Shown: piece after piece, positions 11,688 through 32,000 of the stretch
How the letters are laid out: each line of letters starts with the position of its first letter
Position numbering within the stretch: the stretch's first letter is position 1
Source: Microcystis aeruginosa NIES-843
Lineage (GTDB): Bacteria > Cyanobacteriota > Cyanobacteriia > Cyanobacteriales > Microcystaceae
Assembly: GCF_000010625.1 (NCBI RefSeq)
Contig: NC_010296.1
Location: forward strand, 2,970,001-3,002,000
DNA: 32,000 bases
Direction of reading: 5' to 3'
Notes under the pieces: model-generated
Databases searched by the model: none
Seen by the model: the letters and a program-made list of their open reading frames with translations, nothing else
What the model was told of the DNA's origin: nothing
Program-made: the position numbers and the translations under genes

Positions 11688-11729
11688 AGTTTAGATTCTT
11701 GATTTATGGATAATTTTAGAAAAACAGTT

Positions 11730-12809: not shown

Positions 12810-12866
12810 TGTTGAGGATTTAATTAGATTATTTTCTTGTATAAACTGGAGAATTGAGGATATTCT

Positions 12867-13817: not shown

Positions 13818-13834
13818 TTTCTTACTCCGATCAA

Positions 13835-14716: not shown

Positions 14717-14789
14717 AGACAGTTTCTAACCCGTTTGAATTGTTCATTTCTCAAATACGTTCATGCAAATATCGCTCGAATAAAAAGGA

Positions 14790-15800
14790 TTATTTGCAGT
14801 CTTTTAAAATTCTTTTCAAGGTTTTGTAATCCGTATGTAAATGGATATTGTTTTTAACAACCAAACCTCGTACAGCCCCCCAAATCCAAGATAAAATCAG
14901 CCCAGACAAACCAAAATTATCATAAATAACTCTAGCGTACTCCTGCTTACAATTCGCTAATTTTGAGTTATCTTGATAGGAACTGCTGGCACCACCAAGT
15001 CTAAAAAAAGCAATCGTAGATTTGTCTTTGATTGACGATGCACTCATCTTATAAATCTTTTGATTAAGATCGAAATCAGCATATACTTTATATTTGGTGT
15101 TGAACGGAAGTTGAGCAAGTAGCTTTTTCTTAATGAATAGTCCTTGCGGACATAAAGTATTTTTGAACACAATTAATGGATTATATCTACTAATCCGTAG
15201 CTGACCGTTATCCATAATTACATTGCCATGAATTATGTCCGTATTGTTTAAACTTGCTTTTTGAATAGATTGGCTAGGTATATTTAACAATATATCATCG
15301 CTCCCCAGGTAGTAAATGTAATCTCCTTGACTCAATTTCCAGCCTTTATTCATCGCATCATATATACCTTCGTCAGGTTCGCTCAACCAATAATCTATCT
15401 GATCATCATACTTACGAATAATATCAATTGTGCTGTCCCTAGAACCTCCGTCTATAATAATATACTCAACATTATTGTAAGACTGGCTAATGACACTCTG
15501 AATTGCTTGCTCTAAGTGCTTTTCTCCATTAAAAACTACCGTTATAATAGTAACCAGAGGAACTGCAAATTTTTCCGATAACTCACTTGTCTCTGGGTAG
15601 GAATGCTTGAAATATCCCTTTGTTCTTAATCCTCCTTCTCCCCTGCGTTCTGGATTTGGTGGCAAAAATAAATGAGATTGCACTTTTGCACAAGGATCGT
15701 TAATAATAGCAGGCCTCTCCATAGTTACTCGGCGAGTTGTAGAGAAGTTAGCATCTAGCTCGATAAATTTTTTCTCTTGTAATGGTGGCTTTATTGTCAT
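14790..15800 (-). CDS. Glycosyltransferase family 2
   Basis: 'VTIITVVFNGEKHLEQAIQSVISQSYNNVEYIIIDGGSRDST' and 'DEGIYDAMNKG' are typical GT2 (GT-A) signatures. The true start may be the internal Met at 15722. Confidence 0.85.
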   Translation of the reverse strand: MTIKPPLQEKKFIELDANFSTTRRVTMERPAIINDPCAKVQSHLFLPPNPERRGEGGLRTKGYFKHSYPETSELSEKFAVPLVTIITVVFNGEKHLEQAIQSVISQSYNNVEYIIIDGGSRDSTIDIIRKYDDQIDYWLSEPDEGIYDAMNKGWKLSQGDYIYYLGSDDILLNIPSQSIQKASLNNTDIIHGNVIMDNGQLRISRYNPLIVFKNTLCPQGLFIKKKLLAQLPFNTKYKVYADFDLNQKIYKMSASSIKDKSTIAFFRLGGASSSYQDNSKLANCKQEYARVIYDNFGLSGLILSWIWGAVRGLVVKNNIHLHTDYKTLKRILKDCK

Positions 15801-15868
15801 ATCTTATCTTGATATTGGTAAACTACAAGCGGTTTAATCGTAATTACAAACTAGCTCAGTTTGTAATT

Positions 15869-17552
15869 AGGGTTTGCTGAAAAAGTCATTGAAAAGTACA
15901 GGTCTCTTAATCAATGATTTCACTTAGCTACAAGCATAAGCTTTAGTTGTTGATTAATTTTTAAATTATAACTTATCCTAATCATTGACCGAGAAAAAGT
16001 GCTGTTTTTCCATTTCAGACATAAAAAAGCCCAAAAAACCTGCCTCAACAGGTTAGAAAGATTCATGACTAAAAAAGTAATAGCAATCGCTGAAAAGGAA
16101 GTATGAGGAAGTTTAGCCATCACTTTACCTAAGCTAAATCTTCTTTTCCCTTGTCCAAATTTGCCCTCTATACAATTCCGAATCCTCTCATCATCAGTAG
16201 CTTGTTTCTTTTGTTCTTTACTAACATTTTTGGCTGGTCTTCCTAATGGGGGACCACTGATTCTGATTCCCCTTTCTTTACACCAAGCTCGGTTTTCTCT
16301 GGTTCGATAAATTTTGTCCACATGAACTGATTCTGGATAGTATCCTGTATAGTCATAATAAGCTTCTATTTGTGCTTTTAAATCTCCCGATTCATTAAAG
16401 TTATCCCAACTAATCCGGTCTAAAAATATGTAACCATCTATACAGCTTGCTGAGAATTTGGCCCCAAATTCTACGGGTTTTCCAGCTTTTCCTCTGACTA
16501 TCGGACGGATGTGGGGTTGAGTTAAGCTGACAATTCTGTCTTCAATACTCTGTTTGTTATTTTGGTACATCCAGAGTTGTTGGCGATAAACTTCTGTGAC
16601 TACTAATAACAGTTTATAGTCTCTTTTTTTCAAGCTTTGTAGAGAGGCTCCTTCTGCTAAAAGTTGTTCAATATGGTCGAGATTTCTTTTCAGATATTGC
16701 AGTTGTCTTTTTAGAGCTTTTCGTCTTTGTTTGAAGGTAGGTTTTCTTTTTTTTGCTACTTCTAAATAACTTTTTCTGGCCAGGAGACGATAGGTTCTCG
16801 GTTTTTGAACAAGTTTTCCTTTTATAGTTTCATAGAGAATATCAATAATTTTTTCGGTTTGTTTTCTTCCTTGATTTAACAGGTTTAAATCCGTAGGATA
16901 ACTAATATCTGCGGGCGCACAACTGGCATCTAAAATTAATTTACCTCGATTTTCTGGTTGACTTTGGGTTTCGCTCTCTAACTTTTTTTCGGTGTTTTCT
17001 TCTTCTTTTATTTCTCTCGAATTTTTGACCATAAAGCGATTCACTTTATTAATTAGTTCCCGAGTGATTCTTTCTCGAAAGTGAACCAACATTGACGCTT
17101 CAAACTGGGGTTCATTGCTGTAGGCTGAAAACCCCAAGAAGTATTGTAAATAAGGATTTTCCTTGATTTGTTCTACCGTTTCTCTATCGCTTGTTCCTAA
17201 TTTTTCTTTAATAATTAATGCTCCTAGTGCTGTCCTAAATGTTTTGGCGGGTGCGCCCATTTCTTCTGAAAAAAGTGATGCGTATTCCGCTTCAAATTCT
17301 GACCAGGGAATGAGGTTGGCCATAATTACCCAACGATTATCTTGGGATAATTTCCCCTCAAAGGGCAGCTCGAAGTTTTCTGGTGGGGTTGAGGGTAACT
17401 CGCTTTTACGGTACATTAGCACTAATTAGAGAAGATGCAAGGGTGATGCAAGGGTTTTAAGAGATTCTAGCAGATTTAAGTGCATTTGGGAAGCTCTCAA
17501 TCAAGCTAAAAGCCCTTTCCTGTAAGGTTTTTAGATTTATTCAGCAAACCCT
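15869..17552 (-). mobile_element. IS element (IS5/IS1182 superfamily), 1684 bp
   Basis: Terminal inverted repeats AGGGTTTGCTGAA (15869-15881) and TTCAGCAAACCCT (17540-17552). Flanked by AATT on both sides (15865-68 and 17553-56). Contains one 500-aa transposase ORF. Confidence 0.8.
15920..17422 (-). CDS. Transposase, IS5/IS1182-like (DUF772-type N-terminus + DDE domain)
   Basis: 500 aa. The N-terminal 'FELPFEGKLSQDNRWVIMANLIPWSEFEAEYASLF' resembles the InsH/DUF772 transposase N-terminal domain. The C-terminal part 'VHVDKIYRTRENRAWCKERGIRISGPPLGRP' is typical of this transposase class. Confidence 0.85.
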   Translation of the reverse strand: MLMYRKSELPSTPPENFELPFEGKLSQDNRWVIMANLIPWSEFEAEYASLFSEEMGAPAKTFRTALGALIIKEKLGTSDRETVEQIKENPYLQYFLGFSAYSNEPQFEASMLVHFRERITRELINKVNRFMVKNSREIKEEENTEKKLESETQSQPENRGKLILDASCAPADISYPTDLNLLNQGRKQTEKIIDILYETIKGKLVQKPRTYRLLARKSYLEVAKKRKPTFKQRRKALKRQLQYLKRNLDHIEQLLAEGASLQSLKKRDYKLLLVVTEVYRQQLWMYQNNKQSIEDRIVSLTQPHIRPIVRGKAGKPVEFGAKFSASCIDGYIFLDRISWDNFNESGDLKAQIEAYYDYTGYYPESVHVDKIYRTRENRAWCKERGIRISGPPLGRPAKNVSKEQKKQATDDERIRNCIEGKFGQGKRRFSLGKVMAKLPHTSFSAIAITFLVMNLSNLLRQVFWAFLCLKWKNSTFSRSMIRISYNLKINQQLKLMLVAK

Positions 17553-17683
17553 AATTAGCCCTATGGAACTAGAAAGATTATTGCAGCTCTCTCATACTTG
17601 CCAAAATACTATTAAACTAGCCTGGGGGTTATATCAGCTAATATGATTAGCTAAAAAAATTAACTTTAAGACCTAGAGGAAGT

Positions 17684-17820
17684 AGACCTCTTGCAAAAGT
17701 CTTAAGTCGATCCTTGTACAGCAACATTTTTGAAGATTATCAACTACTAATAAATAATTAACTGAAAGTCCCTCCCATTATTGTTTCTATCGTTTGTTTT
17801 CGGATTTATGCAAGAAGTCT
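17684..17820. mobile_element. 137-bp MITE (family B), a derivative of the IS at 18601-19817
   Basis: Termini are AGACCTCTTGCA (17684-95) and TGCAAGAAGTCT (17809-20). They match the IS termini AGAACTCTTGCA / TGCAAGAGGTCT, and the shared subterminal TTATGCAAGA is also present. A 3-bp duplication AGT lies on both sides (17681-83 and 17821-23). No ORF. Confidence 0.7.
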
Positions 17821-18050: not shown

Positions 18051-18265
18051 AGGGTTTGCTGAAAAAGCTTTTCCTGGGGGCAGGGTGTGGGGTGTGGGGT
18101 GTGGGGTGTGGGGTTTTACCGATTTTGAGGTAGTCAGTTGCCTAATTTTCAGGGAAAAAGTACCTGAATTTTGCCCCCGATCCCCGCAATGGCTGGCACT
18201 TTTTGAGGGAAAAAAAGTCTAAAAGTCTTATCCAACAAGGTTTTTAGATTTATTCAGCAAGCCCT
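18051..18265. mobile_element. 215-bp MITE (family A, copy 2)
   Basis: Termini are AGGGTTTGCTGAA (18051-63) and TTCAGCAAGCCCT (18253-65). Perfect 4-bp duplication AGGT (18047-50 and 18266-69). Same orientation and length as copy 1 at 6460-6674. Confidence 0.8.
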
Positions 18266-19847: not shown

Positions 19848-20594
19848 TTATTCTGGCAAATCCCCAAAACGCTCTCGATAGCGTTGGAGCAATGCTTCTA
19901 AATCCTCAGCCCGCATTCTTTCCTGTTGGGCCCGCATTCTTTCTTGTTGGGCCCGCATTCTTTCCTGTTCAGTTAGCTCTGACTCCGTGGGCAGTAAATC
20001 GCCGGCAAAAGTCGCCCAACGCAGCCAAACTGCCTCGACTCCCTTATACTCCCCTTGCCAGCGTACCAAAGTTAACCCTAGCCTTTGACTGAAAAATCTT
20101 TCTCCCGTCTCTAGAGATAATGGCTCGTAGTTGCCGTCTCTGAGGATAAAACCTGCCCAGTCTTCAGGATTAAAGGGATCGTACCAGAAATATTCTGGCA
20201 CTCGCAAACGGTCTTGATAGATGGCTTTCTTTTCGGTTTTATCCTGTGGGGCAGTACTTTCGGAAAGGAGTTCGATAACCACGTCGGGAGCTTTCCCCTC
20301 TTCCCAAACTACCCAACTTTTTCTTTCCCCTTTAGGAACCCCCAGGACAGCAAAGAAATCGGGACCGCGAAAGTCCTCGCTTTTTAACTGTGCGGCACTG
20401 AAATAAACGAACATATTGCCGCCTACATAGCCATCTTCCCTAGCAGCTAACCAGGGTAACAAGGCATCTATGAGTATATCCATCTGGAGTTTATGTCGTT
20501 GGGTTTCCATGGGAACGCCGTCATCGCAGGGCAATTCATCTTGGGTAGGCAGTGAAAGTCGAGAAGGAGCAATAGTTGAAGTCATCGGAGTCAC
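19848..20594 (-). CDS. Uma2 family (DUF820) endonuclease-like protein
   Basis: 'PCDDGVPMETQRHKLQMDILIDAL...GGNMFVYF...PDFFAVLGVP...KSWVVWEEGKAPDVVIELLSEST...DKTEKKAIYQD.LRVPEYFWYDP' matches the conserved Uma2 / PD-(D/E)xK core that is abundant in cyanobacteria. Confidence 0.85.
   Translation of the reverse strand: MTPMTSTIAPSRLSLPTQDELPCDDGVPMETQRHKLQMDILIDALLPWLAAREDGYVGGNMFVYFSAAQLKSEDFRGPDFFAVLGVPKGERKSWVVWEEGKAPDVVIELLSESTAPQDKTEKKAIYQDRLRVPEYFWYDPFNPEDWAGFILRDGNYEPLSLETGERFFSQRLGLTLVRWQGEYKGVEAVWLRWATFAGDLLPTESELTEQERMRAQQERMRAQQERMRAEDLEALLQRYRERFGDLPE
19909..19971. repeat. 21-bp tandem repeat x3 inside the Uma2 3' end
   Basis: The unit GCCCGCATTCTTTC(C/T)TGTTGG occurs at 19909-29 and 19930-50, with a partial third unit at 19951-71. 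On the coding strand it encodes (QERMRAQ)x3. Confidence 0.9.
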
Positions 20595-20651: not shown

Positions 20652-21044
20652 CTAGAATTGAGACTGGGACAAAATATTATGGTAATTATAGCCTTCTTCT
20701 AGGAAATTAGAGTTTTTTAAGCACATATTATAGGCTTGAGCCGCCTTCAATTTTTGGTACAGCAAAGGACTCTTTTCTCTACAAGACTGTTGTAGTTGCT
20801 GAAACTCGGCTTCACCCTTTTTCAGATAGGCATTGACAAGCTCTCGATTGGCCAGATAGAAAGCGATCGCGCCATAAACCTGTTCGAGGGAAAGGAGTGG
20901 GAAATTTTGGGCAATACTTTCGGGCGATTCTCCGTTCAAGAAAGAATAGACAACTGAATCAAGGGAGATACGAGTTCCTTCGAGCCAATATTCTTCTTCT
21001 CGTTGCTCGATGTACTGCTTTGTTGGGATGGAGGCTAATTTCAT
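20652..21044 (-). CDS. DUF433 domain protein (antitoxin-like HTH)
   Basis: 'GTRISLDSVVYSFLNGESPESIAQNFPLLSLEQVYGAIAFYLANRE' fits the DUF433 pattern (GTRI....V......G.s.eeI...yP.Lt.eqv..Al.Yy). It has a longer-than-usual coiled C-terminal tail. Confidence 0.65.
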   Translation of the reverse strand: MKLASIPTKQYIEQREEEYWLEGTRISLDSVVYSFLNGESPESIAQNFPLLSLEQVYGAIAFYLANRELVNAYLKKGEAEFQQLQQSCREKSPLLYQKLKAAQAYNMCLKNSNFLEEGYNYHNILSQSQF

Positions 21045-21741: not shown

Positions 21742-22290
21742 TTACTTGAAAGATTGCAATACTTCATTATATAGCTTTAAATACTTAGATGCTTGAATCT
21801 CAAGAGTAAATTCTCGCACTACTTTTTCACGAGCGCAATCGCACAATTTCTGGTATCTTTCACTATCTTCTAATACCCAATGAATTCCTTGAGCTAAGTC
21901 TTCAATATCGTAGGGATGAGCCAGATAACCATTCTCTTGATGTTCGATCATATCAGGCATTCCACCAATTTTAAAAGCAACAGAGGGAGTTCCACAGGCG
22001 AGAGCTTCCATGACTGTGTTAGGAAGATTATCCTCAAGGGAGGGAGCGATGAAAATATCGGCGGCGGCATAGACTAAAGCTAGGGAAATGTCATCATTTA
22101 ATCTGCCTAAATAATGGGTTTTCAGTCCAAAATCAGGCGGATTAACTGGTTCAGAAGCACCGAAGACCACTAACTCTAATTTATGCTGCCATATTTCCCC
22201 CTGACTGAGTTTTTTTATAGCAGGTAGCAGCAGATGAAACCCTTTTCGGTTATCGCTTGTTGCCGTCATAGTGCCGAATAGAAATTGATT
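21742..22290 (-). pseudogene. C-terminal half of a GT4 glycosyltransferase, 5'-truncated at the IS630 boundary
   Basis: The native sequence starts at 'NQFLFGTMTATSDNRKGFHLLLPAIKKL' and includes 'EDNLPNTVMEALACGTPSVAFKIGGMPDMI' (EX7E). The first 16 codons of the track ORF (to 22338) are encoded by the IS630 terminal repeat. The N-terminal Rossmann domain of about 170-190 aa is absent on both sides of the IS. Confidence 0.75.
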
Positions 22291-22361
22291 TATAGCAATT
22301 CTTGGAGCTATGAGGTACAATGGAAAGCAAATAGACAAATAATAGAACTTACCGGCTTCCT

Positions 22362-22748
22362 ATGAGACCCTATTCCGTAGATTTTCGCCAAAAAATTATC
22401 GATGTCTGGAAGAAAGAAAAAATTTCCATTCGAGGACTAGCCCAGAGATTTGACGTGGCTAAAAGCTTTATTCAGAAGTTATTGAAGCAACATAAAGAAA
22501 CAGGAGATATCCGTCCTCGTCCGCAAGGGGGAAGTCCGCCAACCAAGTTAAATAGTGAACAACTGATAATTTTAATAGAAATCATCGAAGCTAACAATGA
22601 TGCAACTCTCGAAGAATTATCGGACTTACTGTATGAAAAGACACAGGTGAAAGTCAGTAGAGCCACCCTGGGGCGGCTTACGCAAAAACTCAATTACAGT
22701 TTCAAAAAAAAACACTACACGCGGCGGAAAAAGAAAGTGACAGGGTAG
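22362..22748 (+). CDS. IS630 transposase, N-terminal HTH part (orfA)
   Basis: 'YSVDFRQKIIDVWKKEKISIRGLAQRFDVAKSFIQKLLKQHKETGDIRPRPQGG' is a paired-like HTH typical of IS630 transposases. Confidence 0.85.
   Translation: MRPYSVDFRQKIIDVWKKEKISIRGLAQRFDVAKSFIQKLLKQHKETGDIRPRPQGGSPPTKLNSEQLIILIEIIEANNDATLEELSDLLYEKTQVKVSRATLGRLTQKLNYSFKKKHYTRRKKKVTG
22704..22712 (+). promoter_or_regulatory. A9 slippery run: site of the -1 frameshift or transcriptional slippage joining orfA and orfB
   Basis: In frame 0, TTC AAA AAA AAA CAC reads FKKKHYTRRKKKVTG*. One extra A in the mRNA, or a -1 ribosomal shift, gives FKKKTLHAAEKESDRVEQKRVEYWSEV..., which continues into orfB. Confidence 0.65.
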
Positions 22749-22759
22749 AGCAAAAAAGA

Positions 22760-23311
22760 GTGGAATACTGGTCAGAAGTTCGGGAAATTGAGGCATCAAA
22801 ACTAATTTTCATCGAGGAATCGGGGGTAAATTTAGCCCTTTTGAGACTCTATGCTAGAGCCTTAATTGGCCGAAGAGCTCGGGGAAGAAAACCACAAAAA
22901 AGAGGGAGAAATATTTCAATAATTAGTGCTATAAGCTTAGAAAAAGTTGTCGCATCAGTCAACATATACGGTGCAGTGGATGCGGTAACATTTGAAGGAT
23001 TTATTCTCAAGGAAGTGCTGCCAAAAATTAAAGAAGGAGACTGTCTGATCATGGATAACGCCAAGATTCATCTCGGAGAAATGGTCAGAGAAATAATCGA
23101 ACAAGAAAAAGCTAGACTCATCTATTTACCTCCTTATTCTCCCGAATTCTCTCCTATTGAAAACTTTTGGTCAAAAGTGAAAGCGACGTTAAGAAAACTG
23201 AAGGCGAGAACTTACAAAGACTTAATAGAAGGGATTGAATTGGCTATGTTAGAAGTTACTCAAAAAGATATTCGCAATTGGTTTACTCACTGTTGCTACT
23301 GTACCTCATAA
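22760..23311 (+). CDS. IS630 transposase, DDE catalytic part (orfB, -1 frame)
   Basis: 'LIMDNAKIH' and 'PPYSPEFSPIENFW' give the second D and the E with 34 residues between them. The first catalytic position reads 'FIEESG' where I expect the canonical DE[ST]. The frame is open upstream back to the A9 run, and the stop lies inside the right terminal repeat. Confidence 0.85.
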   Translation: MEYWSEVREIEASKLIFIEESGVNLALLRLYARALIGRRARGRKPQKRGRNISIISAISLEKVVASVNIYGAVDAVTFEGFILKEVLPKIKEGDCLIMDNAKIHLGEMVREIIEQEKARLIYLPPYSPEFSPIENFWSKVKATLRKLKARTYKDLIEGIELAMLEVTQKDIRNWFTHCCYCTS

Positions 23312-23336
23312 GTCAGAGAATTGCTATAGTTTCCAA

Positions 23337-24539
23337 CTAGGAAACAACTGTTTGGACAATATTCAGAAATTGTTCTGCATAAGTTTGGCATTCTATTTTA
23401 TTGTTGGTTTGCGCTTCTGATTCAGATATTAAATCTGGTCCAGGCATAAGCTTAGTCGTTAATAATTCAAGATGATTGGCAAGCTCTTGTGAAGAATCTG
23501 GTTTAAAAAATATAGCACCAGGAGAATTTTGCTCTTTGTGGACAGAAATATCTGATAATAATATTGTTTTACCTAACACTCGAGCATCTTCTACTACTGT
23601 ACTCCAGCCTTCAAACAATGAAGGCTGAATAACTGCTAACGATCTCCTCATGAGTTGAATCTGATCCCAACGGGGAATTAATCCAAGAATTATAAATTGA
23701 TCGCTTAAACAGTTTTTTTCAATTGAATTTTTTATTTCTTCTCCATACTTAGGAAATCGGCTATCATAAAGTTTACCAGTACACACAACTACGGGCTTGA
23801 CATTTGTTCTTTTCAATAAGATAAGTGCTTCTATGATAAGCTTATGATTTTTGTGTATCCAAAATTGATTGCTAACCAAAAAGAACTTGTTTGGAAGATT
23901 ATATTTTTCCTGAACTAATGTTGGAGCTAAATGATTGTCAAACCAGTCTTGATTGGGTATCGTTCTAAAACTTAATACAAATTTTTGAGCTTTAGATTCA
24001 GGGTAAAAAGCAGCAAAATCGCTCAAAGCACTTTTACTGCTAAAGACTATATTTAACGAATTGTTAGATAAATATTTAAATGCCTTATCACGGCTTTTTA
24101 TTTCTTTGGTAGAAAAATATGAGGGTAGATATTTATGTTGAAAATCTGGAATCCAAGTTGACCAACCGCAATTAAAATCCCAGGAAATACCCCAATTTAT
24201 TGGAACAGGATATACAAAGTCTATTTCTTTACTTTCTAAAAGTTTTATCAACCTTGTATCCTTTAGCCAAGTAGAACTTTGACCAACTTTCCATAATAAT
24301 CGATTCAAAAAAGAAGGCTTTATACAATTAGTTATGTATATTTGTTCCACTAGATTTTCCAGTTCTTCATAATAGCTTTTTTTGAGATTAGAACCAATAA
24401 ATAAATATAGCTTAATATGCTCCCTTTTATTGGCAGGTAACTCGGCAATAGATTTGACAAGATTTTTAATATAAATAATCCCCCCCATCCAGTTATCATC
24501 AGCTTGCATCAGAATACCAATATTTAAGGTTTTTATCAT
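23337..24539 (-). CDS. Glycosyltransferase, group 1 (GT-B)
   Basis: The C-terminal domain 'LVSNQFWIHKNHKLIIEALILL...VVCTG...PSLFEGWSTVVEDARVLGKTILLSD' contains EX7E. The likely start at 24539 forms an ATGA overlap with the upstream epimerase stop. The track ORF extends to 24563. Confidence 0.8.
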   Translation of the reverse strand: MIKTLNIGILMQADDNWMGGIIYIKNLVKSIAELPANKREHIKLYLFIGSNLKKSYYEELENLVEQIYITNCIKPSFLNRLLWKVGQSSTWLKDTRLIKLLESKEIDFVYPVPINWGISWDFNCGWSTWIPDFQHKYLPSYFSTKEIKSRDKAFKYLSNNSLNIVFSSKSALSDFAAFYPESKAQKFVLSFRTIPNQDWFDNHLAPTLVQEKYNLPNKFFLVSNQFWIHKNHKLIIEALILLKRTNVKPVVVCTGKLYDSRFPKYGEEIKNSIEKNCLSDQFIILGLIPRWDQIQLMRRSLAVIQPSLFEGWSTVVEDARVLGKTILLSDISVHKEQNSPGAIFFKPDSSQELANHLELLTTKLMPGPDLISESEAQTNNKIECQTYAEQFLNIVQTVVS

Positions 24540-25456
24540 CCCATTAGCTCCGCACGACACCATTGAGTATAGACACTGATTCCTCTATCAAGAGTTACTT
24601 CAGGAAGAAACCCAAGTTTTTTGAGACAATTTATATCCGCTTTCCAGTTTAAGGGATTGCCAATAGGTATTGTACCTTCAAAATGTACAGGAATATCGAG
24701 TTTCAACTGTTCTAGTATCAAGTTAACTAACTCCTTAATAGAGGTTTCTGTTCCACTTGCCAAATTATAAACATCGGCGTGACAAGGAGCTTTCTCTGTT
24801 AAGAGGTAGAGAGCTTTGGCTATATCTCGACTATGGATAAAATCACGACTTTCATTACCCGTTCCCTGTAGATTGAGAACGGGGTTTGTCAGAGCCTTAT
24901 GACAGATATCCCAGATAACTTGTCGCCTCAATCCCGGACCATAGGCAGAAAAGATGCGTACTGTAGCTGTTAGTAAACCATAAACTTGGAAAAACTCCCG
25001 GCAAAGTTGTTCACAGATTAGCTTATGGTAGCCATAGGGTGAAATAGGATTGAGGGAATGACTTTCATTAACGGGTAAAGTTTTGTGATTACCATAAACA
25101 GCAGCACTAGAAAGATAAATAACTCGGCATTGAGGTGCATGAAGGCGAAGTGCATCTAATAAGTTGAAAGTAACAACTACTCCATCGGTAAAATCTGCTT
25201 TTGGTTCACTTACTGAAAGAGGAACTGATGCCCTTGCAGCACAATGGATACAGACCTGTGGCTGTAGTTGTTCGATGAGTATGGCTAAATCAGGGGAAGG
25301 TAGAGTGAGTTGATGATAACGCAAGAGATCTTGAGTTGGCGCGTTTTCTGGAGGACGGGTTCCCAAACCGACAACAGACCACCCAGCTTGGGCGAATTCG
25401 CGAGCTATATACCGCCCAATAAATCCTGTAACACCAGTAATTAGAACAGTTTTCAA
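24536..25456 (-). CDS. NAD-dependent sugar epimerase/dehydratase (extended SDR, UDP-glucose 4-epimerase-like)
   Basis: 'VLITGVTGFIGRYIA' (GxxGxxG), 'SSAAVYG' and the catalytic 'YGYHKLICE' (YxxxK). Confidence 0.85.
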   Translation of the reverse strand: MKTVLITGVTGFIGRYIAREFAQAGWSVVGLGTRPPENAPTQDLLRYHQLTLPSPDLAILIEQLQPQVCIHCAARASVPLSVSEPKADFTDGVVVTFNLLDALRLHAPQCRVIYLSSAAVYGNHKTLPVNESHSLNPISPYGYHKLICEQLCREFFQVYGLLTATVRIFSAYGPGLRRQVIWDICHKALTNPVLNLQGTGNESRDFIHSRDIAKALYLLTEKAPCHADVYNLASGTETSIKELVNLILEQLKLDIPVHFEGTIPIGNPLNWKADINCLKKLGFLPEVTLDRGISVYTQWCRAELMG

Positions 25457-25654
25457 GACATTAATCCTAGAGTTTAGTTGGTGATAACTAATAGTATTTA
25501 CAGGTATCTGCTATTTCTCTGAATATCGATTCAATGACTAGAGGATATGTTTCTAAACATTTACTCCAACAACTATTCTAGAAAAAGTAGCGACAATTGC
25601 AGGAAAAAGCATTAACCTATGCGGCAAATTATAAAAATATGTGTTATTCAAATA

Positions 25655-26578
25655 TTATAATATTTCATAGCCGAGTTCAGATAATAGAGAATTATATTTT
25701 TCCTTAAAATACTGTTTATGTTCATCATTAAAATGGTTTTTCCAATCTCCTGTAATTCCCTTCCGATAATGACTCTTGATATTTTCTTCTCCTGGTTTTC
25801 TAGCCCCCGATAGTTTAATAAAATTATTATCATATACAATACTTAATAGCCGCCAAGGATAAAGCGGGGATCGAAAAGATAGCAAGTTCAAATTATTAAC
25901 GGGCATATATCTTGAGTATATTAGTTTTGAAATAACCTTCTGTAATCTGTAGTTTATCACAGATTTGAGAGCTATATTATTAGATTTTTCTAAAATTCCT
26001 AGAAACTGAAAAATATCTAGAAATTTGCTGTAGGGGTTAGAAACTAACTCTTCAAACTTGATCTCCATGATGTTAGGGCATGAGTAGTTCCACCCAAACA
26101 TATCTTTAAATACATTTACTTCTACTCCATCATATTTTAACCTCTCAAGATGTTCCATTGTTAAAAACAATCCTTCGTCTTTGGAAACTTTTTCTAATTG
26201 CTTTCTATAATCGACCAACTCAGGCCAGAATTGATCGCTGTGACTATACAGGTGAGAAAAGTAAGCTGATACTACTGTATCACGGGGGTCTCTGATCACG
26301 TGAAAACCTTTAAAATTTTGCAGGATTGGATTGACGTAATTTATATCGGCGTTGGTGTAGGATAAAAATTGAATTTTATTTCTGTTGATTGCTTCGGCTA
26401 AATCGAAGTTGAACATCTTGGGACTGTGGAAGTGCGTACTTTTAATTCCTATTTCCGAACACACCGAATAAACTACTTTTAAAATCCAGCTTGAACCAGC
26501 TTTATGATGACCGAAATAAGCTAGTATCGGGGTGTCCGTACTTATTGCAAGGTTTTTCATAAAAATATGATGAAACAT
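25655..26578 (-). CDS. Sulfotransferase family protein
   Basis: PAPS 5'-phosphosulfate-binding loop-like 'GHHKAGSSWILK'. 3'-phosphate-binding motif 'HVIRDPRDTVVSAYF'. C-terminal 'HYRKGITGDWKNHF'. Confidence 0.8.
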   Translation of the reverse strand: MFHHIFMKNLAISTDTPILAYFGHHKAGSSWILKVVYSVCSEIGIKSTHFHSPKMFNFDLAEAINRNKIQFLSYTNADINYVNPILQNFKGFHVIRDPRDTVVSAYFSHLYSHSDQFWPELVDYRKQLEKVSKDEGLFLTMEHLERLKYDGVEVNVFKDMFGWNYSCPNIMEIKFEELVSNPYSKFLDIFQFLGILEKSNNIALKSVINYRLQKVISKLIYSRYMPVNNLNLLSFRSPLYPWRLLSIVYDNNFIKLSGARKPGEENIKSHYRKGITGDWKNHFNDEHKQYFKEKYNSLLSELGYEIL

Positions 26579-26604
26579 TAAGGATGTAGTACCACATTAT
26601 AGCA

Positions 26605-27114
26605 TCAGAAAAGTTTTTTTGACAAGTTCAGCCTAAAAAAAACTTCTTTGGTAGAATGGCTCTTCGGTTTGTGTTATGCAATTGACGGGGAGTATAAGGG
26701 ATGGAACCCTTATATAGAAAGGCATTTAGCGATTTTTGTCAATTATTTTTGATCTAGAGCGAACTAATCAATTAAGTCTCTTGCCAGATAAGGATTTAGT
26801 CGATTTATGCCCCCCTATCGAACCATACCAAGTAACGAAGAACCGGTAGAATTATCTATAATTGTCAAAGGACGTTTTTCTATTTGAAAAAGACTGCAAT
26901 AAGCTTCTAGGTAAACAACCACAGCACTATTAATTATGTGGTCTTTTCCTTGAATTCCAGGCCCAAGAAAATCTACCTGATCATTTTCAAAAGCGAAAAA
27001 ATAGGGTTCTTTCTTGGGACTTATGTAAACTTCTGGGTGTTGCCCCAAGTATTGAGCTAGGGATGTGGTGCCAGACTTGGGGGCACCAATAATTAGGAAG
27101 TTAGGCATAGTCAT
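26605..27114 (-). pseudogene. Sulfotransferase N-terminal fragment carrying a MITE insertion
   Basis: 'MPNFLIIGAPKSGTTSLAQYLGQHPEVYISPKKEPYFFAF' is a classic sulfotransferase N-terminus with a PKSGTT P-loop. The ORF runs into the MITE at 26844 (...IIDNST|GSSLLGMVR*). After in-silico excision it continues only ...DNSTKEVFFRLNLSKKLF* (about 104 aa). It therefore lacks the RDP motif region and the C-terminal two thirds. Confidence 0.7.
26658..26844. mobile_element. 187-bp MITE (family E, copy 1)
   Basis: Termini are GGCTCTTCGGTT... and ...AACGAAGAACC, an imperfect 12-bp inverted repeat of the form GGYTCTTCGKTT. Perfect 8-bp duplication GGTAGAAT at 26650-57 and 26845-52. Colinear, in reverse complement, with 31352-31538. 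Confidence 0.85.
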
Positions 27115-27147
27115 ATAATTTAGCTCTCTACTAATAACAGTAATTAA

Positions 27148-27981
27148 TTAGAAATTATAACCCAATAAACCAGCTATATCCCGACTCGAATCTTCTATAA
27201 ACTTTCTATCTGACTCGGATAATTCTCGTCCACGATTGGCTACACCTTGACGAACAAATGACATTTTTTCGTTAACTAAATTTAAAGATGCGTGCTTTAA
27301 TTCTGATTCCTTCATTCGTTCTTTTGAACTCAAGGCGATCGCTTTTTCCAGAGAACTATCATCCATTATCATACCTAAAGACTCCATTAAAAGAAAGAGT
27401 TGTAATTTAGTATCTTCCAGAAAATCTTCATATCTAAATATTTTGATTCTCTGACTGGCTGGGTTGTGATCAAAATACCAAGACTTGCTGTGTTTTACCC
27501 AACTCATAATACCGTACTTATCATCTCTGATTAGCTCTGATATGGTAGTTGCCTCAGAAATTTGCTTTAGTCCCTTGAGATAATGATAATAGGAAACCAT
27601 TACATCTCTGGGATCTCTGACTAGGAGAATGACTCTGTAGTAGTACGGGTTATAGGCAGAGTGACTTTTAATAATTCTAGGTAAGTCTGTTCTTCCAAAA
27701 GGCCCAGTTGGCTGTAGGTTTATCTTGCCTCGCGGAGAAGGTATGATACCCAAGATAGTAAAAAAATTGACATCTTGATCTATTCGATAATGGACTTTGA
27801 TAGCATTAGCAATTAAAAATCTTAACCATGTGTTTCCTGATTTTGGATAGGAAACGAGGAAAACATCCTCTACCACATGATTTTTATGCAGAGAACGCCC
27901 ATACTTGATTTTTTTTGCTATTCGACTAGGCAAGGTCAAGATGTTTAAAGAATTCAATGGAAAGGATAGTATGTTTTTCAT
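27148..27981 (-). CDS. Sulfotransferase domain protein
   Basis: 'VSYPKSGNTWLRFLIANA' (5'-PSB loop), 'ILLVRDPRDVMVSYYHY' (3'-PB motif) and 'SFVRQGVANRGRE' near the C-terminus. Confidence 0.85.
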   Translation of the reverse strand: MKNILSFPLNSLNILTLPSRIAKKIKYGRSLHKNHVVEDVFLVSYPKSGNTWLRFLIANAIKVHYRIDQDVNFFTILGIIPSPRGKINLQPTGPFGRTDLPRIIKSHSAYNPYYYRVILLVRDPRDVMVSYYHYLKGLKQISEATTISELIRDDKYGIMSWVKHSKSWYFDHNPASQRIKIFRYEDFLEDTKLQLFLLMESLGMIMDDSSLEKAIALSSKERMKESELKHASLNLVNEKMSFVRQGVANRGRELSESDRKFIEDSSRDIAGLLGYNF

Positions 27982-28154
27982 AAGGTTTCGTCTTTATATA
28001 TTCACCAGTTTCTCACCGGCCATCATAACACACAGTTTTACATAATATAGGTCTTTCCTAGATCGCAAAAAGTACTTATCAAGTAACTATAAGCTAAGAC
28101 GCATTTAAACCGCTTATTCTTAGATTAGCCGAACCTCCCCCAATCCCTTTACTG

Positions 28155-28182
28155 TTGCCTTTTGCCTCTTGCCTTTTGCCTC
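28155..28182. repeat. 14-bp tandem repeat x2 (TTGCCTTTTGCCTC)
   Basis: Two perfect adjacent copies in the 368-bp gap between the Wzy-like gene stop and the sulfotransferase start. Confidence 0.8.
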
Positions 28183-28349
28183 GTTTCAACAAGCAATTTA
28201 AATTACGAACAGCTTAGCAGTTTTCATCAGAATCAGGCATGGGCAAGGGGCTTAAACCATTTGTTGGCAAAACTTGTCGATACGTCAGTAACGGGAAAAG
28301 TGCTATATTTAGTTAGTCCATAATTATAACTCCGTTTATAGAATTGAAT

Positions 28350-29717
28350 TCATATTTTATATCCTTTATATTTCTTGTATTTTTTTTTGTAGTATTCTCT
28401 GATTAAAAGTATTAACCAAATAATCAAAAAACGAAAGACAGAGCCTAGACTTAACAATAGCAAAAACAGGGCAATAAAAGAAGTAAAAATAATCAAGAAA
28501 TTATTTTTTGTAGAATCTCCAAATCTACAAATTAAGGCAATTGTAATTGGACCGATAAAAGCTCCTACCCAACCAAAATTAGATAAGGATTCCCCCAACC
28601 AAGTCCCTGTTATACCGAAGAGAACATCTTTGGGAGATATGTTAAAAGAGGCCGCTGCCACATATTTTTGGTAATTATAAGTAATGGGTTTACCTGGACA
28701 CAAAAAGCGAGGAATATATAAAACTAAAGCATGATAAACTGTCTGAAGTCGATGATCGAGTATCTTAAGTTTATCAGGATTTAATTCTGAATAAATAGAC
28801 AGTTTAAGCAGATGGTCTCTACCATAATCGAAACGAGATATTTCATACATTTGCTTTGTATCTATACCCCTGACTAAGGAAGTTTGATAAGAATAGGAAA
28901 AAAGACCAAAAACTAATAATAAACCCAATAAAAATGCTAAGATTTTTACTCTATTAAAAGCTTTTTTTAATAGAAAAGTGAGGATTAAAGCGAAAATCAT
29001 AAAAGCAACAATATGCCGCTTGCCGTTAAGCCATATTGTTATGGATGTTGGTATTATAACACTTGCCCAAAAGTACAAATTCATTAGTGACAAATTTTTA
29101 TTTTTTTGCAATAAAATCACTGTTATCATTCCACTCAAACTGAGTAAAGAAGAAAGATGTATAAGTTGATGAAATTTTTCCTCTTCTTCCGACAAGAGAC
29201 CAGCACCTTTTGCTCCGTAAGTGATGTAGAGACCGGGATTAGGACTAAATGACCAAAGAATGACAGGTAAGAATAAAAGAAAGTAACCAATAAGTAGTAT
29301 CATTAATAACTTAAATTGTTTACCGAGCTTATACCTATTGCTGGAACCAATTAAGTTAACCCAAAATGTTTGATTATTGATTAATAATCTTCCATGACTC
29401 TCCTTGTCTTTGGGGATTCCATTGTACCACAATACTACTGGCACGATAGCAATGTATAGGCAGTAAATCAAAAAGGTTGTTTCATCCCTAACAGCCACTC
29501 TTAGATTATCAAGTCCACGAAAAAAGTCGTACTTAGGTTCACCAATTACTAAATCTAATAATAACGGCACACCAAAAAATAAAAAATTAATGATAATTAC
29601 TAAGTAGGCAGAGTAATAGCGCTTAAATATTATATTCTTGCCGGACAAAAAAGCCCAAAATAAAAGCCAGGCAAAGGTTATTATCTTAACTAAGTTAATC
29701 TCATTTTCGCTCATCAT
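28350..29717 (-). CDS. Polytopic membrane protein, putative oligosaccharide repeat-unit (O-antigen) polymerase Wzy
   Basis: 455 aa, with about 10-12 hydrophobic segments and very AT-rich coding sequence. It lies directly downstream of a Wzx flippase in a glycosyltransferase cluster. I saw no diagnostic motif; the call rests on topology and context. Confidence 0.55.
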   Translation of the reverse strand: MMSENEINLVKIITFAWLLFWAFLSGKNIIFKRYYSAYLVIIINFLFFGVPLLLDLVIGEPKYDFFRGLDNLRVAVRDETTFLIYCLYIAIVPVVLWYNGIPKDKESHGRLLINNQTFWVNLIGSSNRYKLGKQFKLLMILLIGYFLLFLPVILWSFSPNPGLYITYGAKGAGLLSEEEEKFHQLIHLSSLLSLSGMITVILLQKNKNLSLMNLYFWASVIIPTSITIWLNGKRHIVAFMIFALILTFLLKKAFNRVKILAFLLGLLLVFGLFSYSYQTSLVRGIDTKQMYEISRFDYGRDHLLKLSIYSELNPDKLKILDHRLQTVYHALVLYIPRFLCPGKPITYNYQKYVAAASFNISPKDVLFGITGTWLGESLSNFGWVGAFIGPITIALICRFGDSTKNNFLIIFTSFIALFLLLLSLGSVFRFLIIWLILLIREYYKKKYKKYKGYKI

Positions 29718-29785
29718 ATCTCCTTAGTAAGTTTTCTCTGATAACATCGAAACGCAAATAATTAAGTAGGGAGGCAAAATTATTT

Positions 29786-29850
29786 GTAGGATGGGTTAGC
29801 GGTAGCGTAACATAATCGGGCGTTGGGTTTCATGCTTCAACCCAACCTAC
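29786..29850. repeat. Nested palindromic element (GTAGGATGGGTT ... GTTGGGTT-n9-AACCCAAC-CTAC)
   Basis: The outer arms GTAGGATGGGTT (29786-97) and AACCCAACCTAC (29839-50) pair at 11/12. The inner hairpin GTTGGGTT tcatgcttc AACCCAAC is perfect. The element lies between the wzx stop and the wzy start. It resembles the GTTGGGTT/AACCCAAC palindromes I recall as dispersed repeats in cyanobacteria. Confidence 0.5.
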
Positions 29851-29881
29851 GTTCATCTTATATTTAATTCCACCCACCCAT

Positions 29882-31183
29882 TTAAATTGCCGTAGATTTG
29901 ATGCCCAATTTTTGGCGTACCCAGATAGCACTGATAACATTGCCCACAATCATCGAGATTGCGGTGGCAGTGGCTGCACCATTCACCCCCCACTTCGGTA
30001 TTAGTAGCCAATTAAGACAGACATTTAACAAAGCGGCAAATGCCACAGTTGCTGCACTAAATTTAGCATGGCGGGTCATATTTAGCAATAGACCCACGGA
30101 ACCAGTCAGAGCGTTAACCAGATAGCCAATACTCAAAATTATCAAAGCTGTTTGTCCCTGTATAAACTCAGCACCAAAAAGCTGTAAGATCGAGTATCTC
30201 AATGCAATCAACCCCAAAGTCATGACTAGAGCAAACAAGCTGATTAAACGAGTGCTATGAGTAACCAGCCTTTGCAGTTGTTCCCGCTTTCCCTCTGCAT
30301 ACAGTGTAGCAAAAGTTGGCGAAAGGACGTTATTCAATATTCCCAGGGCAAAAACAATCAGAGAAGTGACTCGACTGACTACTGCGTAAACTCCCACCGC
30401 ACCCGCACCCTTGAAGGCACCGAGCATCAATATATCGATACGAGAGTTAATCACCGCTAGTCCTCCTAGCAAAATAAACGGTAAGCCGTCCTTCAGCCAA
30501 GTCAGAATTTTGTATTCAGGTTTAGCCTGTTTAACCTCTTGGGGAAGCACTCTGGCTAATAGTACCACACCAACGACAAAAGTAATGCCAAGAGATATCA
30601 ATTTTAAGCCCATCACCCAGACAGTGATATTTTCTTGATTTCTAAGAAACCAGTAGCTAGAAATCGTCAGGATAATAAAAACTAAGGGAGCTAGTAGATT
30701 TTCTGGCATTTGCCCTAAAACCACCCTGTGTAAACCCTTCATCGTCGCTAGTCTCAAGCTAGTTAAAGAGACAATTGGTAAGGAAATCATCGCTACACAC
30801 AGAGATGGTAATAAGTCCGGCTCCCTGACTTGTCCCCAGTTCAGAATAATAGCAATAGCAACTAATGCCATTAGGCTAGAAACTATGAAGACAATTGCAT
30901 TTGCCCATTGTAATAGACCACGCATTAATCCCCAAGCTGACTGACTACTATAGATAGCCACTTCTCTGACTAATAAGTTATTAAAGCCTAGAGTCGCAGG
31001 AATGCCCAGCAAAGCCGGCCAAGTCATTGCATAAGTATAAACCCCAAAGCCATTTTTACCGAGCCAGCGAGCTAGAATAATACTGGTCAGAAAACTAAGG
31101 GTCATGAAAGCAACTCTTAAACCAAGAGAACCCGTCGCATCTCGAATTAAACGTTCTTTCAGTTTTAAGGGAGTTTTCTTCAT
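29882..31183 (-). CDS. wzx: Wzx-type oligosaccharide flippase (MOP superfamily polysaccharide biosynthesis protein)
   Basis: 433 aa, about 12 TM segments. The N-terminal 'GSLGLRVAFMTLSFLTSIILARWLGKNGFGVYTY' is typical of PST/MOP flippases. Confidence 0.85.
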   Translation of the reverse strand: MKKTPLKLKERLIRDATGSLGLRVAFMTLSFLTSIILARWLGKNGFGVYTYAMTWPALLGIPATLGFNNLLVREVAIYSSQSAWGLMRGLLQWANAIVFIVSSLMALVAIAIILNWGQVREPDLLPSLCVAMISLPIVSLTSLRLATMKGLHRVVLGQMPENLLAPLVFIILTISSYWFLRNQENITVWVMGLKLISLGITFVVGVVLLARVLPQEVKQAKPEYKILTWLKDGLPFILLGGLAVINSRIDILMLGAFKGAGAVGVYAVVSRVTSLIVFALGILNNVLSPTFATLYAEGKREQLQRLVTHSTRLISLFALVMTLGLIALRYSILQLFGAEFIQGQTALIILSIGYLVNALTGSVGLLLNMTRHAKFSAATVAFAALLNVCLNWLLIPKWGVNGAATATAISMIVGNVISAIWVRQKLGIKSTAI

Positions 31184-31208
31184 CTTTTTCTTTGCTCCAG
31201 AGATGCTA

Positions 31209-32000
31209 CTAAGTCCATCGTGAATAAACTTTTCTGATTTCTTCCTCCGTGTAAAAATGATTAAAGTATTTAGAACTGCACATCTCCTCTACATAAGATA
31301 GTGGTAATTTGAGATTTTGCTTAAATTCTTTATACATATCTCGATAATTTTGGCTCTTCGGGACTTGGTATGGTTCGATAGGGGGGCATAAATCGACTCA
31401 ATCCTTATCTGGCAAGAGATTTAATTGATTAGTTCGCTCCAGATCGCCAACAATTGACAAAAATTGCGGCAATGTCTGTCTCTATAAAGGTTTCATTCCT
31501 TATAACCCCGTCCATTGCATAAGACAAACCGAAGAACCATAATTTTTATCTTCTCCCACGTTCGTCCTTACTAACTTAAATTCTTTTAAACCCAGAAATT
31601 CGGCGATTGCTTTTTCCTTTACACTGTCAGAGGTTTCTAGTTTGAGGATCAATAAATCCACATTATCTTTGTTAATTCTTAAATATCCCTGCTCTTTCGG
31701 AAAAGGATATTCATAAACATCTATCCCTAAAAATGGCTTGAAGTAATTATCGAACCAGTCTAGGGGAGTTGAATGAGGGAAAAAATTGATAAATATATCC
31801 CTTAGCTCTTGGGGAGTAAAATTGGATTGTTCATACTTTTTCCCTGTTTCTCTTTCAAAGTTCTGAAAAAAAGCTGCAACATTTCTACCTATTGGTTCCC
31901 TAGTTAAAGAAATAATTTTTACTTGTTTTTTCGGGGCAATTATTTTGTTATATAAAAATTTACCCTGTCTGAGTAGCATTTCTCTCTCCAGTTTTACGCT
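31209..32000 (-). pseudogene. Sulfotransferase-like / capsular-polysaccharide-synthesis family gene, interrupted by a MITE; 5' end runs off the window
   Basis: The track ORF 31500..31979 contains 'IISLTREPIGRNVAAFFQN', an RxP...R motif reminiscent of the sulfotransferase 3'-PB site. It ends in MITE-encoded GSSVCLMQWTGL*. Removing 31352..31538 plus one 8-bp duplication continues ...GEDKNYRDMYKEFKQNLKLPLSYVEEMCSSKYFNHFYTEEEIRKVYSRWT* to a stop at 31209, 25 bp upstream of the wzx start. The frame is open upstream of 31979 to the window edge. Confidence 0.6.
31352..31538. mobile_element. 187-bp MITE (family E, copy 2; inverted relative to copy 1)
   Basis: The + strand starts GGCTCTTCGGGACTTGGTATGG and ends ...CAAACCGAAGAACC. 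Perfect 8-bp duplication ATAATTTT at 31344-51 and 31539-46. The reverse complement aligns end to end with 26658-26844. Confidence 0.85.

Follow-up and report, generated by a model that had tools for sequence, protein, structure and literature searches.

What kind of glycan is encoded by a run of flippase, polymerase, glycosyltransferase, methyltransferase and sulfotransferase genes in the Microcystis aeruginosa NIES-843 chromosome, and does the run found there match that of other Microcystis? Microcystis blooms rely on colony mucilage, the genes and chemistry of which are poorly defined. The stretch analysed here, 32,000 nucleotides of contig NC_010296.1 (positions 2,970,001 to 3,002,000; hereafter the window, with coordinates counted from its first nucleotide), contains a polysaccharide gene array at 9674-32000 that lies on the minus strand and is co-oriented and tightly packed, as judged from open reading frame (ORF) listing and Pfam/NCBIfam scans. 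Our preferred reading, to which we give a probability of roughly 65%, is that the array encodes a Wzx/Wzy/Wzc-dependent capsule or mucilage pathway whose repeat unit is sulfated and methylated, and that one tailoring module has been exchanged in this strain. What these genes would most reasonably be expected to make is a glycan that is both sulfated and methylated. On comparison with public contigs, the locus is a conserved but strain-variable Microcystis chromosomal polysaccharide locus, most of which is held by the window.

The distal part of the array comprises, in order, an atypical short-chain dehydrogenase/reductase (SDR300), two glycosyltransferases of GT4 (373 amino acids, aa) and GT4-like (359 aa) type, a zinc-ribbon S-adenosylmethionine (SAM) methyltransferase, a second SAM methyltransferase and a GT2 glycosyltransferase. 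The middle part holds two insertion sequence (IS) elements, a Uma2/DUF433 pair, a 198-aa C-terminal remnant of a GT4 and an IS630-family element, and the proximal part a GT4 (408 aa), SDR306, the sulfotransferase ST307, a 99-aa sulfotransferase fragment, the sulfotransferase ST277, a 455-aa membrane protein, Wzx and a PF10364 gene. This amounts to four intact and one truncated glycosyltransferase, two SDRs, two SAM methyltransferases and two intact sulfotransferases. An initial annotation of the same DNA had placed all of its listed gene types on one strand, under the coordinates 23337-32000; every type was recovered, on the minus strand, and half of the counted genes do lie in that interval, the other half being at 9674-15800.

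The case for sulfation begins with three genes.

27148-27981, minus strand: ST277, a 3'-phosphoadenosine 5'-phosphosulfate (PAPS)-type sulfotransferase (PF00685, 83 bits, E = 2.9e-23), kept in the canonical locus
25655-26578, minus strand: ST307, a PAPS-type sulfotransferase (PF00685, 46 bits, E = 5e-12), in the variant cassette
26815-27114, minus strand: ST303 remnant, a 99-aa N-terminal sulfotransferase fragment (PF13469, E = 7e-7)

The PF00685 cutoff is 22 bits. ST277 aligns over its full length with cytosolic SULT structures (E = 3.5e-14) and has the motifs PKSGNTW and RDPRD. For ST307, the PAPS-binding motifs HKAGSSW, RDPRD...S and RKGITGDWKNHF align in order to those of the oestrogen sulfotransferase SULT1E1, and all three (the third as RKGxxGDW) are invariant or nearly so in 27 members of a large family, which numbers 2743 representatives at E <= 1e-3. 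The AlphaFold (AF2) model of ST307 has a mean predicted local distance difference test score (pLDDT) of 86, and the top 50 Foldseek matches in the PDB are all PAPS sulfotransferases (E ~1e-8, probability 1.0), PAP- or PAPS-bound SULTs among them. By alignment and predicted structure, ST277 and ST307 carry the features of PAPS sulfotransferases, namely the 5'-phosphosulfate-binding (5'-PSB) loop, the 3'-phosphate-binding (3'-PB) motif and the fold. The sulfotransferases show no resemblance to one another by BLASTP and so represent distinct subfamilies. The ST303 remnant is 91% identical over 77 aa to a 303-aa XssA-like sulfotransferase of the canonical locus (canonical ST303), of which the first 77 codons have been kept and the rest lost. 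The initial annotation had made its proposal conditional on a sulfotransferase fold in the 307- and 277-aa proteins, and the hidden Markov model, motif and structure matches support that fold. It had counted four sulfotransferase-type genes, of which ST277 and ST307 are intact and the ST303 remnant is disrupted; the fourth, the PF10364 (NKWYS) gene, is unproven as a sulfotransferase.

A sulfotransferase fold does not tell the substrate, and the nearest solved relatives of these enzymes act on small molecules. Both points would suit an explanation in which the sulfotransferases and methyltransferases modify something else, for instance a glycolipid or secondary metabolite, and merely happen to lie beside the glycan genes. 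We regard this as very improbable. These genes share the orientation of wzx, wzy and the glycosyltransferases and are closely packed among them, the pairing is found repeatedly, both among Microcystis variants and in unrelated phyla, and no nonribosomal peptide synthetase, polyketide synthase or lipid genes were found near the locus.

Distant ST277 homologues beyond the cyanobacteria were also found in glycan loci, in Olleya sp. R77988 (L034, 5936-12774) and in a Verrucomicrobiae metagenome-assembled genome (L015, 7202-11826). In Olleya, the surrounding genes encode two sulfotransferases, a GT4, a Wzy_C protein and a membrane protein of 461 aa with distant similarity to the Wzy family of Microcystis (hhalign 84%). 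In the Verrucomicrobiae genome, a sugar C-methyltransferase-type protein and a 458-aa protein without a family match are encoded upstream. These two cases do not fit easily with the published view that sulfotransferases are absent from the polysaccharide clusters of other bacteria.

Two adjacent genes would account for translocation and polymerization of the repeat unit.

29882-31183, minus strand: MOP-superfamily flippase Wzx, 433 aa (PF01943, 68.5 bits, cutoff 28.2, E = 8e-19; also MatE)
28350-29717, minus strand: Wzy-like repeat-unit polymerase, 455 aa (TIGR04370 over the full length, 26.9 bits, E = 2e-6, below the cutoff of 40)

The PF01943 score confirms the flippase named in the initial annotation, and the public assembly collection lists the identical Wzx protein in 81 blocks. 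The polymerase that had been named beside it stands as a 455-aa polytopic protein with similarity to TIGR04370 ('oligosaccharide repeat unit polymerase'), a match that lies below the cutoff; no Pfam match was obtained, and Foldseek comparison of its model with the PDB returned nothing significant (best E = 0.9), which gives no structural support either way. The same TIGR04370 model is matched by 12 of 15 homologues. Homologues are few and, where named, come from Microcystis, and some are called repeat-unit polymerases by their sources (NCBI naming). In the AlphaFold model (pLDDT 78), which consists entirely of helices, ~11 span the membrane, and invariant Arg, Asp, Lys and Glu residues lie in a ~90-aa loop. 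The gene directly follows wzx, a position that fits a polymerase. Based on these sequence and model features, the 455-aa protein is likely to be the Wzy polymerase. The wzy region (28306-29878) has no nucleotide match in Microcystis contigs L039-L041, whose wzx is 99.9% identical and which carry a 462-aa Wzy instead; by this comparison, wzy is an allelic replacement beside a conserved flippase, typical of serotype-like loci.

No priming transferase, Wza or Wzc was found within the window, and Bac_transf, WecA-type and Poly_export domains were absent from the window ORFs and from contigs L038 and L039. In syntenic contigs encoding the identical Wzx, a 770-aa Wzc with Wzz and P-loop domains lies near the NKWYS gene, and one contig with the variant of the window continues past NKWYS on the upstream side, to ~60 nt from the position at which Wzc starts in L038. 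From this synteny, the Wzc co-polymerase is almost certainly encoded ~1.3 kb past the window end in this genome. The initial annotation had reported no Wzc or Wza, which is correct for the window itself; Wzc is probably not missing, and in the syntenic contigs lies just outside the corresponding interval. The priming transferase and the Wza/outer membrane polysaccharide export (OPX) protein may be encoded elsewhere, by analogy with xssT in Synechocystis.

Wzc also bears on whether the product would be a sulfated, methylated O-antigen of lipopolysaccharide instead of a released or capsular exopolysaccharide (EPS). Wzx/Wzy pathways make O-antigens as well (reviewed in PMC4390846), the exchange of a wzy allele beside a conserved wzx looks like O-serotype variation, and the locus has no Wza. 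The Wzc of the syntenic contigs is, however, of the PCP-2a type with a P-loop ATPase/kinase domain, which is typical of capsule and EPS systems and not of the O-antigen Wzz, and no WaaL-type ligase was seen; we hold an O-antigen product to be improbable.

Synthesis and modification of the repeat unit would fall to the following genes.

23337-24563, minus strand: GT4 glycosyltransferase, 408 aa as the longest ORF and 400 aa in public contigs (PF00534, E = 1.8e-16), in the variant cassette
24536-25456, minus strand: SDR306, a nucleoside diphosphate (NDP)-sugar epimerase/dehydratase (PF01370, E = 3e-48), in the variant cassette
14790-15800, minus strand: GT2 glycosyltransferase, 336 aa (PF00535, E = 1.9e-20)
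13835-14716, minus strand: SAM methyltransferase, 293 aa (Methyltransf_23/11/31, E = 1e-10 to 3e-12)
12867-13817, minus strand: SAM methyltransferase, 316 aa (Methyltransf_11, E = 2e-10)
11730-12809, minus strand: GT4-like glycosyltransferase, 359 aa (PF13692, E = 6e-11)
10566-11687, minus strand: GT4 glycosyltransferase, 373 aa (PF00534, E = 1.9e-39, plus Glyco_transf_4)
9674-10576, minus strand: SDR300, an atypical protein of the NAD-dependent epimerase/dehydratase family (PF01370, E = 1.5e-11), at the distal end of the locus and abutting the Pat-like gene at 6812-9538

Pfam thus agrees with the earlier counts of at least five glycosyltransferase genes, one of them truncated (the GT4 at 23337-24563, the GT4 remnant, the GT4 at 10566-11687, the GT4-like gene and the GT2), of two epimerase/dehydratase-type SDRs (24536-25456 and 9674-10576, both with PF01370) and of two SAM methyltransferases at 12867-14716. 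The methyltransferase at 12867-13817 has an N-terminal zinc ribbon, with a match to Zn_Ribbon_YjdM at residues 7-35 that falls under the cutoff, and SDR306 matches the RmlB and GalE models about equally, both below threshold. The six distal genes are contiguous with the Pat-like gene, in the same order and at 100% identity, in contig L048.

In the pathway we propose, the GT4 and GT2 enzymes would assemble the oligosaccharide repeat unit, attached to a lipid carrier, on the cytoplasmic side of the membrane, with modified NDP-sugar supplied by the SDRs. The unit would be decorated by the PAPS-dependent ST277 and ST307 and by the SAM methyltransferases, flipped across the membrane by Wzx and polymerized by the Wzy-like protein; Wzc, most likely encoded just past the window end, and a Wza encoded elsewhere would then export the polymer as capsule or mucilage. 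The analysis establishes the protein families, the fold and cofactor motifs of the sulfotransferases, the synteny and the rearrangements; which acceptor is used, that the polymer is sulfated and methylated, how it is exported and how active the locus is in this strain are what we infer. ST277, ST307 and the XssA-like ST303 of other strains are concrete candidates for the sulfation of Microcystis glycans.

The second part of the question, how this copy compares with those of other Microcystis, was addressed by alignment to public contigs. The closest ST277 homologues belong to Microcystis aeruginosa; the chromosome of Microcystis sp. BLCC-F210 has a copy with 93% identity. Contigs with an identical Wzx share a canonical order: photolyase, Wzc, NKWYS, Wzx, Wzy, sulfotransferase, ST303, methyltransferase, MT21, GT4, DUF433, Uma2, GT2. 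This order opens with the photolyase and the 770-aa Wzc (both on the minus strand), followed by a 41-aa ORF and then NKWYS (280 aa); its sulfotransferase is of 271 or 277 aa, its methyltransferase of 268 or 312 aa, its FkbM-type methyltransferase of 240 aa and its GT4 of 426 aa. Relative to this common version, the present strain has lost the XssA-like ST303, two methyltransferases and half of the GT4, and has the ST307-SDR-GT4 cassette in their place. Nucleotide homology to the canonical locus ends at 26884 (codon 77 of ST303) and resumes at 22283 (codon ~239 of the 426-aa GT4), and between these breakpoints lie ST307, SDR306 and the different GT4 at 23337-24563, which are always linked in public contigs. 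The borders and the other mobile elements of the locus are as follows.

21742-22290, minus strand: remnant of the canonical GT4, C-terminal ~188 codons (ORF 21742-22338, 198 aa), its N-terminal domain lost at the IS630 junction
22291-23328, plus strand: IS630-family element with 36-nt terminal inverted repeats and HTH_32 and DDE_3 domains, one border of the cassette
26658-26844, no strand assigned: copy 1 of a miniature inverted-repeat transposable element (MITE), 187 bp, target-site duplication GGTAGAAT, the other border of the cassette, on the ST303 side
31352-31538, no strand assigned: MITE copy 2, 187 bp, target-site duplication ATAATTTT, interrupting NKWYS
15864-17557, minus strand: IS element A, 500-aa transposase (DUF772 and DDE_Tnp_1_2), 39-nt terminal inverted repeats, absent at this site in L039
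18600-19819, minus strand: IS element B, 297-aa DDE_Tnp_4 transposase, 33-nt terminal inverted repeats, absent from L039

The GT4 remnant is 64% identical in amino-acid sequence over 176 aa to the 426-aa GT4 of L038, and its nucleotide homology to L039 and L040 ends at 22283. The transposase of the IS630-family element is split into ORFs of 128 and 183 aa. MITE copy 1 lies inside the ORF of the ST303 remnant, ~40 bp beyond the end of homology to canonical ST303. Its excision in silico did not restore the ST303 ORF, from which it follows that ST303 was lost by a separate deletion or recombination and not by the MITE alone. In this strain's allele, ST307, an SDR and a GT4 have taken the place of a module of ST303, two methyltransferases and a GT4, of which the 5' end of ST303 and the 3' end of the GT4 survive as stubs; the swap would likely lead to a different sulfated side residue. 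This mosaic arrangement occurs at >=99.9% identity in several metagenome assemblies and is therefore a circulating natural allele, and the canonical and cassette-swapped alleles could be compared chemically without genetic manipulation.

Base composition is in keeping with exchange of this kind. GC is 0.30-0.43 in the genes of the locus and 0.46-0.49 in moeB, gcvH and the Pat-like gene, which bears out the earlier remark that the locus is more AT-rich than the moeB/gcvH block. Horizontal exchange had been suggested on that ground, and low GC fits internal cassette exchange better than import of the whole locus. We rejected whole-locus import as the principal explanation; the flanks and the order of the genes are shared by Microcystis contigs, so that exchange appears to act on internal cassettes.

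The same insertions and remnants raise the prospect that the locus is decaying and inactive in this strain, with the IS and MITE insertions, the truncated GT4 and sulfotransferase and the broken NKWYS having stopped polymer production. Some Microcystis lineages lose colony mucilage, and a comparison with them may be drawn here. The locus contains two MITEs besides its three IS elements, only remnants are left of the canonical GT4 and of ST303, NKWYS is without its last 44 codons, and IS elements A and B, which sit between Uma2 and GT2, part the upstream genes from the six downstream genes. Because NKWYS was hit recently by a MITE and the operon is split by two IS elements, output may be altered or reduced, and the activity of this strain's copy is uncertain, given these IS and MITE insertions and the truncation of a GT4 and a sulfotransferase. 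Against complete decay, the remaining ORFs have their full length and are unbroken, nothing is missing from the swapped-in cassette, the IS elements are placed between genes and not within the surviving ones, and the arrangement persists in nature at >=99.9% identity across several environmental metagenomes. We therefore consider an inactive locus unlikely, and continue to prefer a capsule or mucilage pathway with one exchanged module.

A broader and more tentative extension, which we would put forward only as a speculation, is that this is a mucilage 'serotype' locus of Microcystis, in which self-contained modules (each with one sulfotransferase, one GT4 and sugar-tailoring genes) are swapped by recombination at MITE and IS borders, and wzy alleles are swapped too. 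If so, each strain would have its own pattern of sulfation and methylation, and this pattern would determine colony morphotype, the binding of cations and how phages and grazers recognize the cells.

Several points weigh against the pathway proposed above. The acceptors of ST277 and ST307 are not readable from sequence, and sulfation and methylation of the polymer are predicted from the genes. The Wzy assignment is under curated cut-offs and is without a structural match, and a priming phosphoglycosyl transferase and Wza were found neither in the window nor in the 21-kb syntenic loci. The adjacency of Wzc in this exact genome is drawn from other contigs. Finally, the insertions (three IS elements, two MITEs) and the two gene remnants may be signs that the pathway is crippled in this strain.

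The initial annotation had taken sulfotransferases embedded in a Wzx/Wzy cluster as the hallmark of the xss (synechan) system of Synechocystis sp. PCC 6803 (sll5042-5060, plasmid pSYSM). The architecture is indeed shared, both systems being of the Wzx/Wzy type with genuine embedded sulfotransferases, several glycosyltransferases and a polysaccharide co-polymerase (XssK in xss); the gene for the outer-membrane exporter lies elsewhere in Synechocystis, and probably in Microcystis too. Microcystis Wzc and XssK share 27% identity over the full length (E = 1e-64), and canonical ST303, the gene truncated in this strain, is 25% identical to XssA, also over the full length (E = 4e-20). In contrast, Wzx and Wzy of the window have no BLASTP match to XssH and XssF, XssE is matched by ST277 and ST307 only at E = 0.04 and 0.015, respectively, and the glycosyltransferases match Xss proteins only at the family level (BLASTP against XssA-Q). 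The Microcystis locus is chromosomal, whereas xss is plasmid-borne, and carries SAM methyltransferases and SDRs, which xss lacks. Regulators of the XssQ/R/S type (STAND/NACHT protein, response regulator, histidine kinase) were absent from the window and from L038, no XssP-like priming transferase was found in the locus, and a tblastn search of a plasmid collection with ST277 returned rhizobial and other sulfotransferases and no pSYSM match. Membership of the xss system was rejected, since matches to XssA-Q are at family level or absent and do not indicate orthology; as far as these alignments go, the likeness is one of architecture only, and the locus is not related to xss by descent.

The gene combination had also been described as unrecognized, which does not hold. 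Kehr and Dittmann (2015) reported putative wzx/wzy genes of M. aeruginosa NIES-843 beside glycosyltransferases, epimerases, methyltransferases and sulfotransferases (PMC4390846), and a mosaic distribution of Microcystis wzx/wzy loci that suggested recombination (PMC4390846, Figure 3). Maeda et al. (2021) found cyanobacterial sulfotransferase genes mostly within Wzx/Wzy or ABC-type polysaccharide clusters (PMC8205485), and their Supplementary file 3 lists nine sulfotransferases in M. aeruginosa NIES-843 with the remark 'Sulfated EPS?' (PMC8205485). A literature search for direct work on the locus in Microcystis, or on sulfation of its mucilage, turned up the review of 2015 and the synechan paper of 2021 alone, and no characterization of a product. 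The loci of the 2015 review (PMC4390846) are of the same genus and the same kind and show mosaic variation between strains; that account is at the annotation level, covering NIES-843 and draft genomes and possibly including this exact chromosomal site, whereas the exchange of the cassette, its borders of MITE and IS type and the adjacency of Wzc come from the present analysis. The locus is a new mosaic allele of a known locus type. Given that sulfotransferases in cyanobacterial Wzx/Wzy clusters were already published, its value is as a resource and a hypothesis and not as a surprise.

As with the Group 1/4 capsule and O-antigen serotype loci of Enterobacteria (Wzx/Wzy/Wzc/Wza), the Microcystis locus has conserved flanks around a variable centre of low GC, combines a conserved wzx with wzy alleles that diverge, and has mobile elements at the borders of its cassettes. 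It differs from them in having sulfotransferases, and wza, wzb and the priming transferase are not in it.

The gene at the window end was examined separately.

31209-32000, minus strand: NKWYS-family gene (PF10364, E = 2e-19), its 5' end beyond the window end

The gene is interrupted by MITE copy 2, which displaces its last 44 codons. Excision of the element in silico exactly restores a 280-aa ORF identical to the intact protein of contig L004 (736-1578), which argues that the insertion is recent; L038 likewise has the homologue intact, at 280 aa. Counting NKWYS as a proven sulfotransferase was dropped, as profile-profile comparison of its family with that of ST307 by hhalign was negative (probability 0.4%). 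PDB profile matches are only to heparan sulfate 3-O-sulfotransferases, at the REPxxRxxS motif, and are not significant (E = 0.04-0.3). Members of the family share an invariant P-loop-like QMGKVGS motif and a REPxxRNxSAFF motif, which resemble the two PAPS-binding motifs of carbohydrate sulfotransferases. From these motifs, NKWYS may be an unrecognized sulfotransferase family.

The 187-bp MITE has terminal repeats GGCTCTTCGG.../...CGAAGAACC and 8-bp target-site duplications, and occurs twice in the window. A related copy lies in Microcystis contig L039 (11135-11320), right after the ST303 stop codon, and public contigs frequently terminate at this element. In L039, GT2 comes directly after Uma2 and the IS elements are lacking there; relative to that contig, the window also has smaller unexplained insertions at ~17690-17820 and ~18052-18264. 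An Rfam scan of the window returned zero RNA families. The remaining features within and beside the locus are as follows.

19848-20594, minus strand: Uma2 gene, by Pfam match
20652-21044, minus strand: DUF433 gene, by Pfam match
6812-9538: Pat-like protein, 908 aa, an acyl-CoA synthetase (NDP-forming) region fused to a GNAT domain
16-2655: MmeI-type (type IIL) restriction-modification enzyme, complete, 879 aa, GC 0.35

The pair of Uma2 (a putative endonuclease) and DUF433 is kept mid-locus in Microcystis contigs L038 and L039 and is not obviously biosynthetic; its GC of 0.42-0.49 is above that of neighbouring genes. The Pat-like gene, which may be compared with Pat-like protein acetyltransferases, forms the conserved distal border of the polysaccharide locus. 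The MmeI-type enzyme at the opposite end of the window from NKWYS is probably a separate mobile defence gene.

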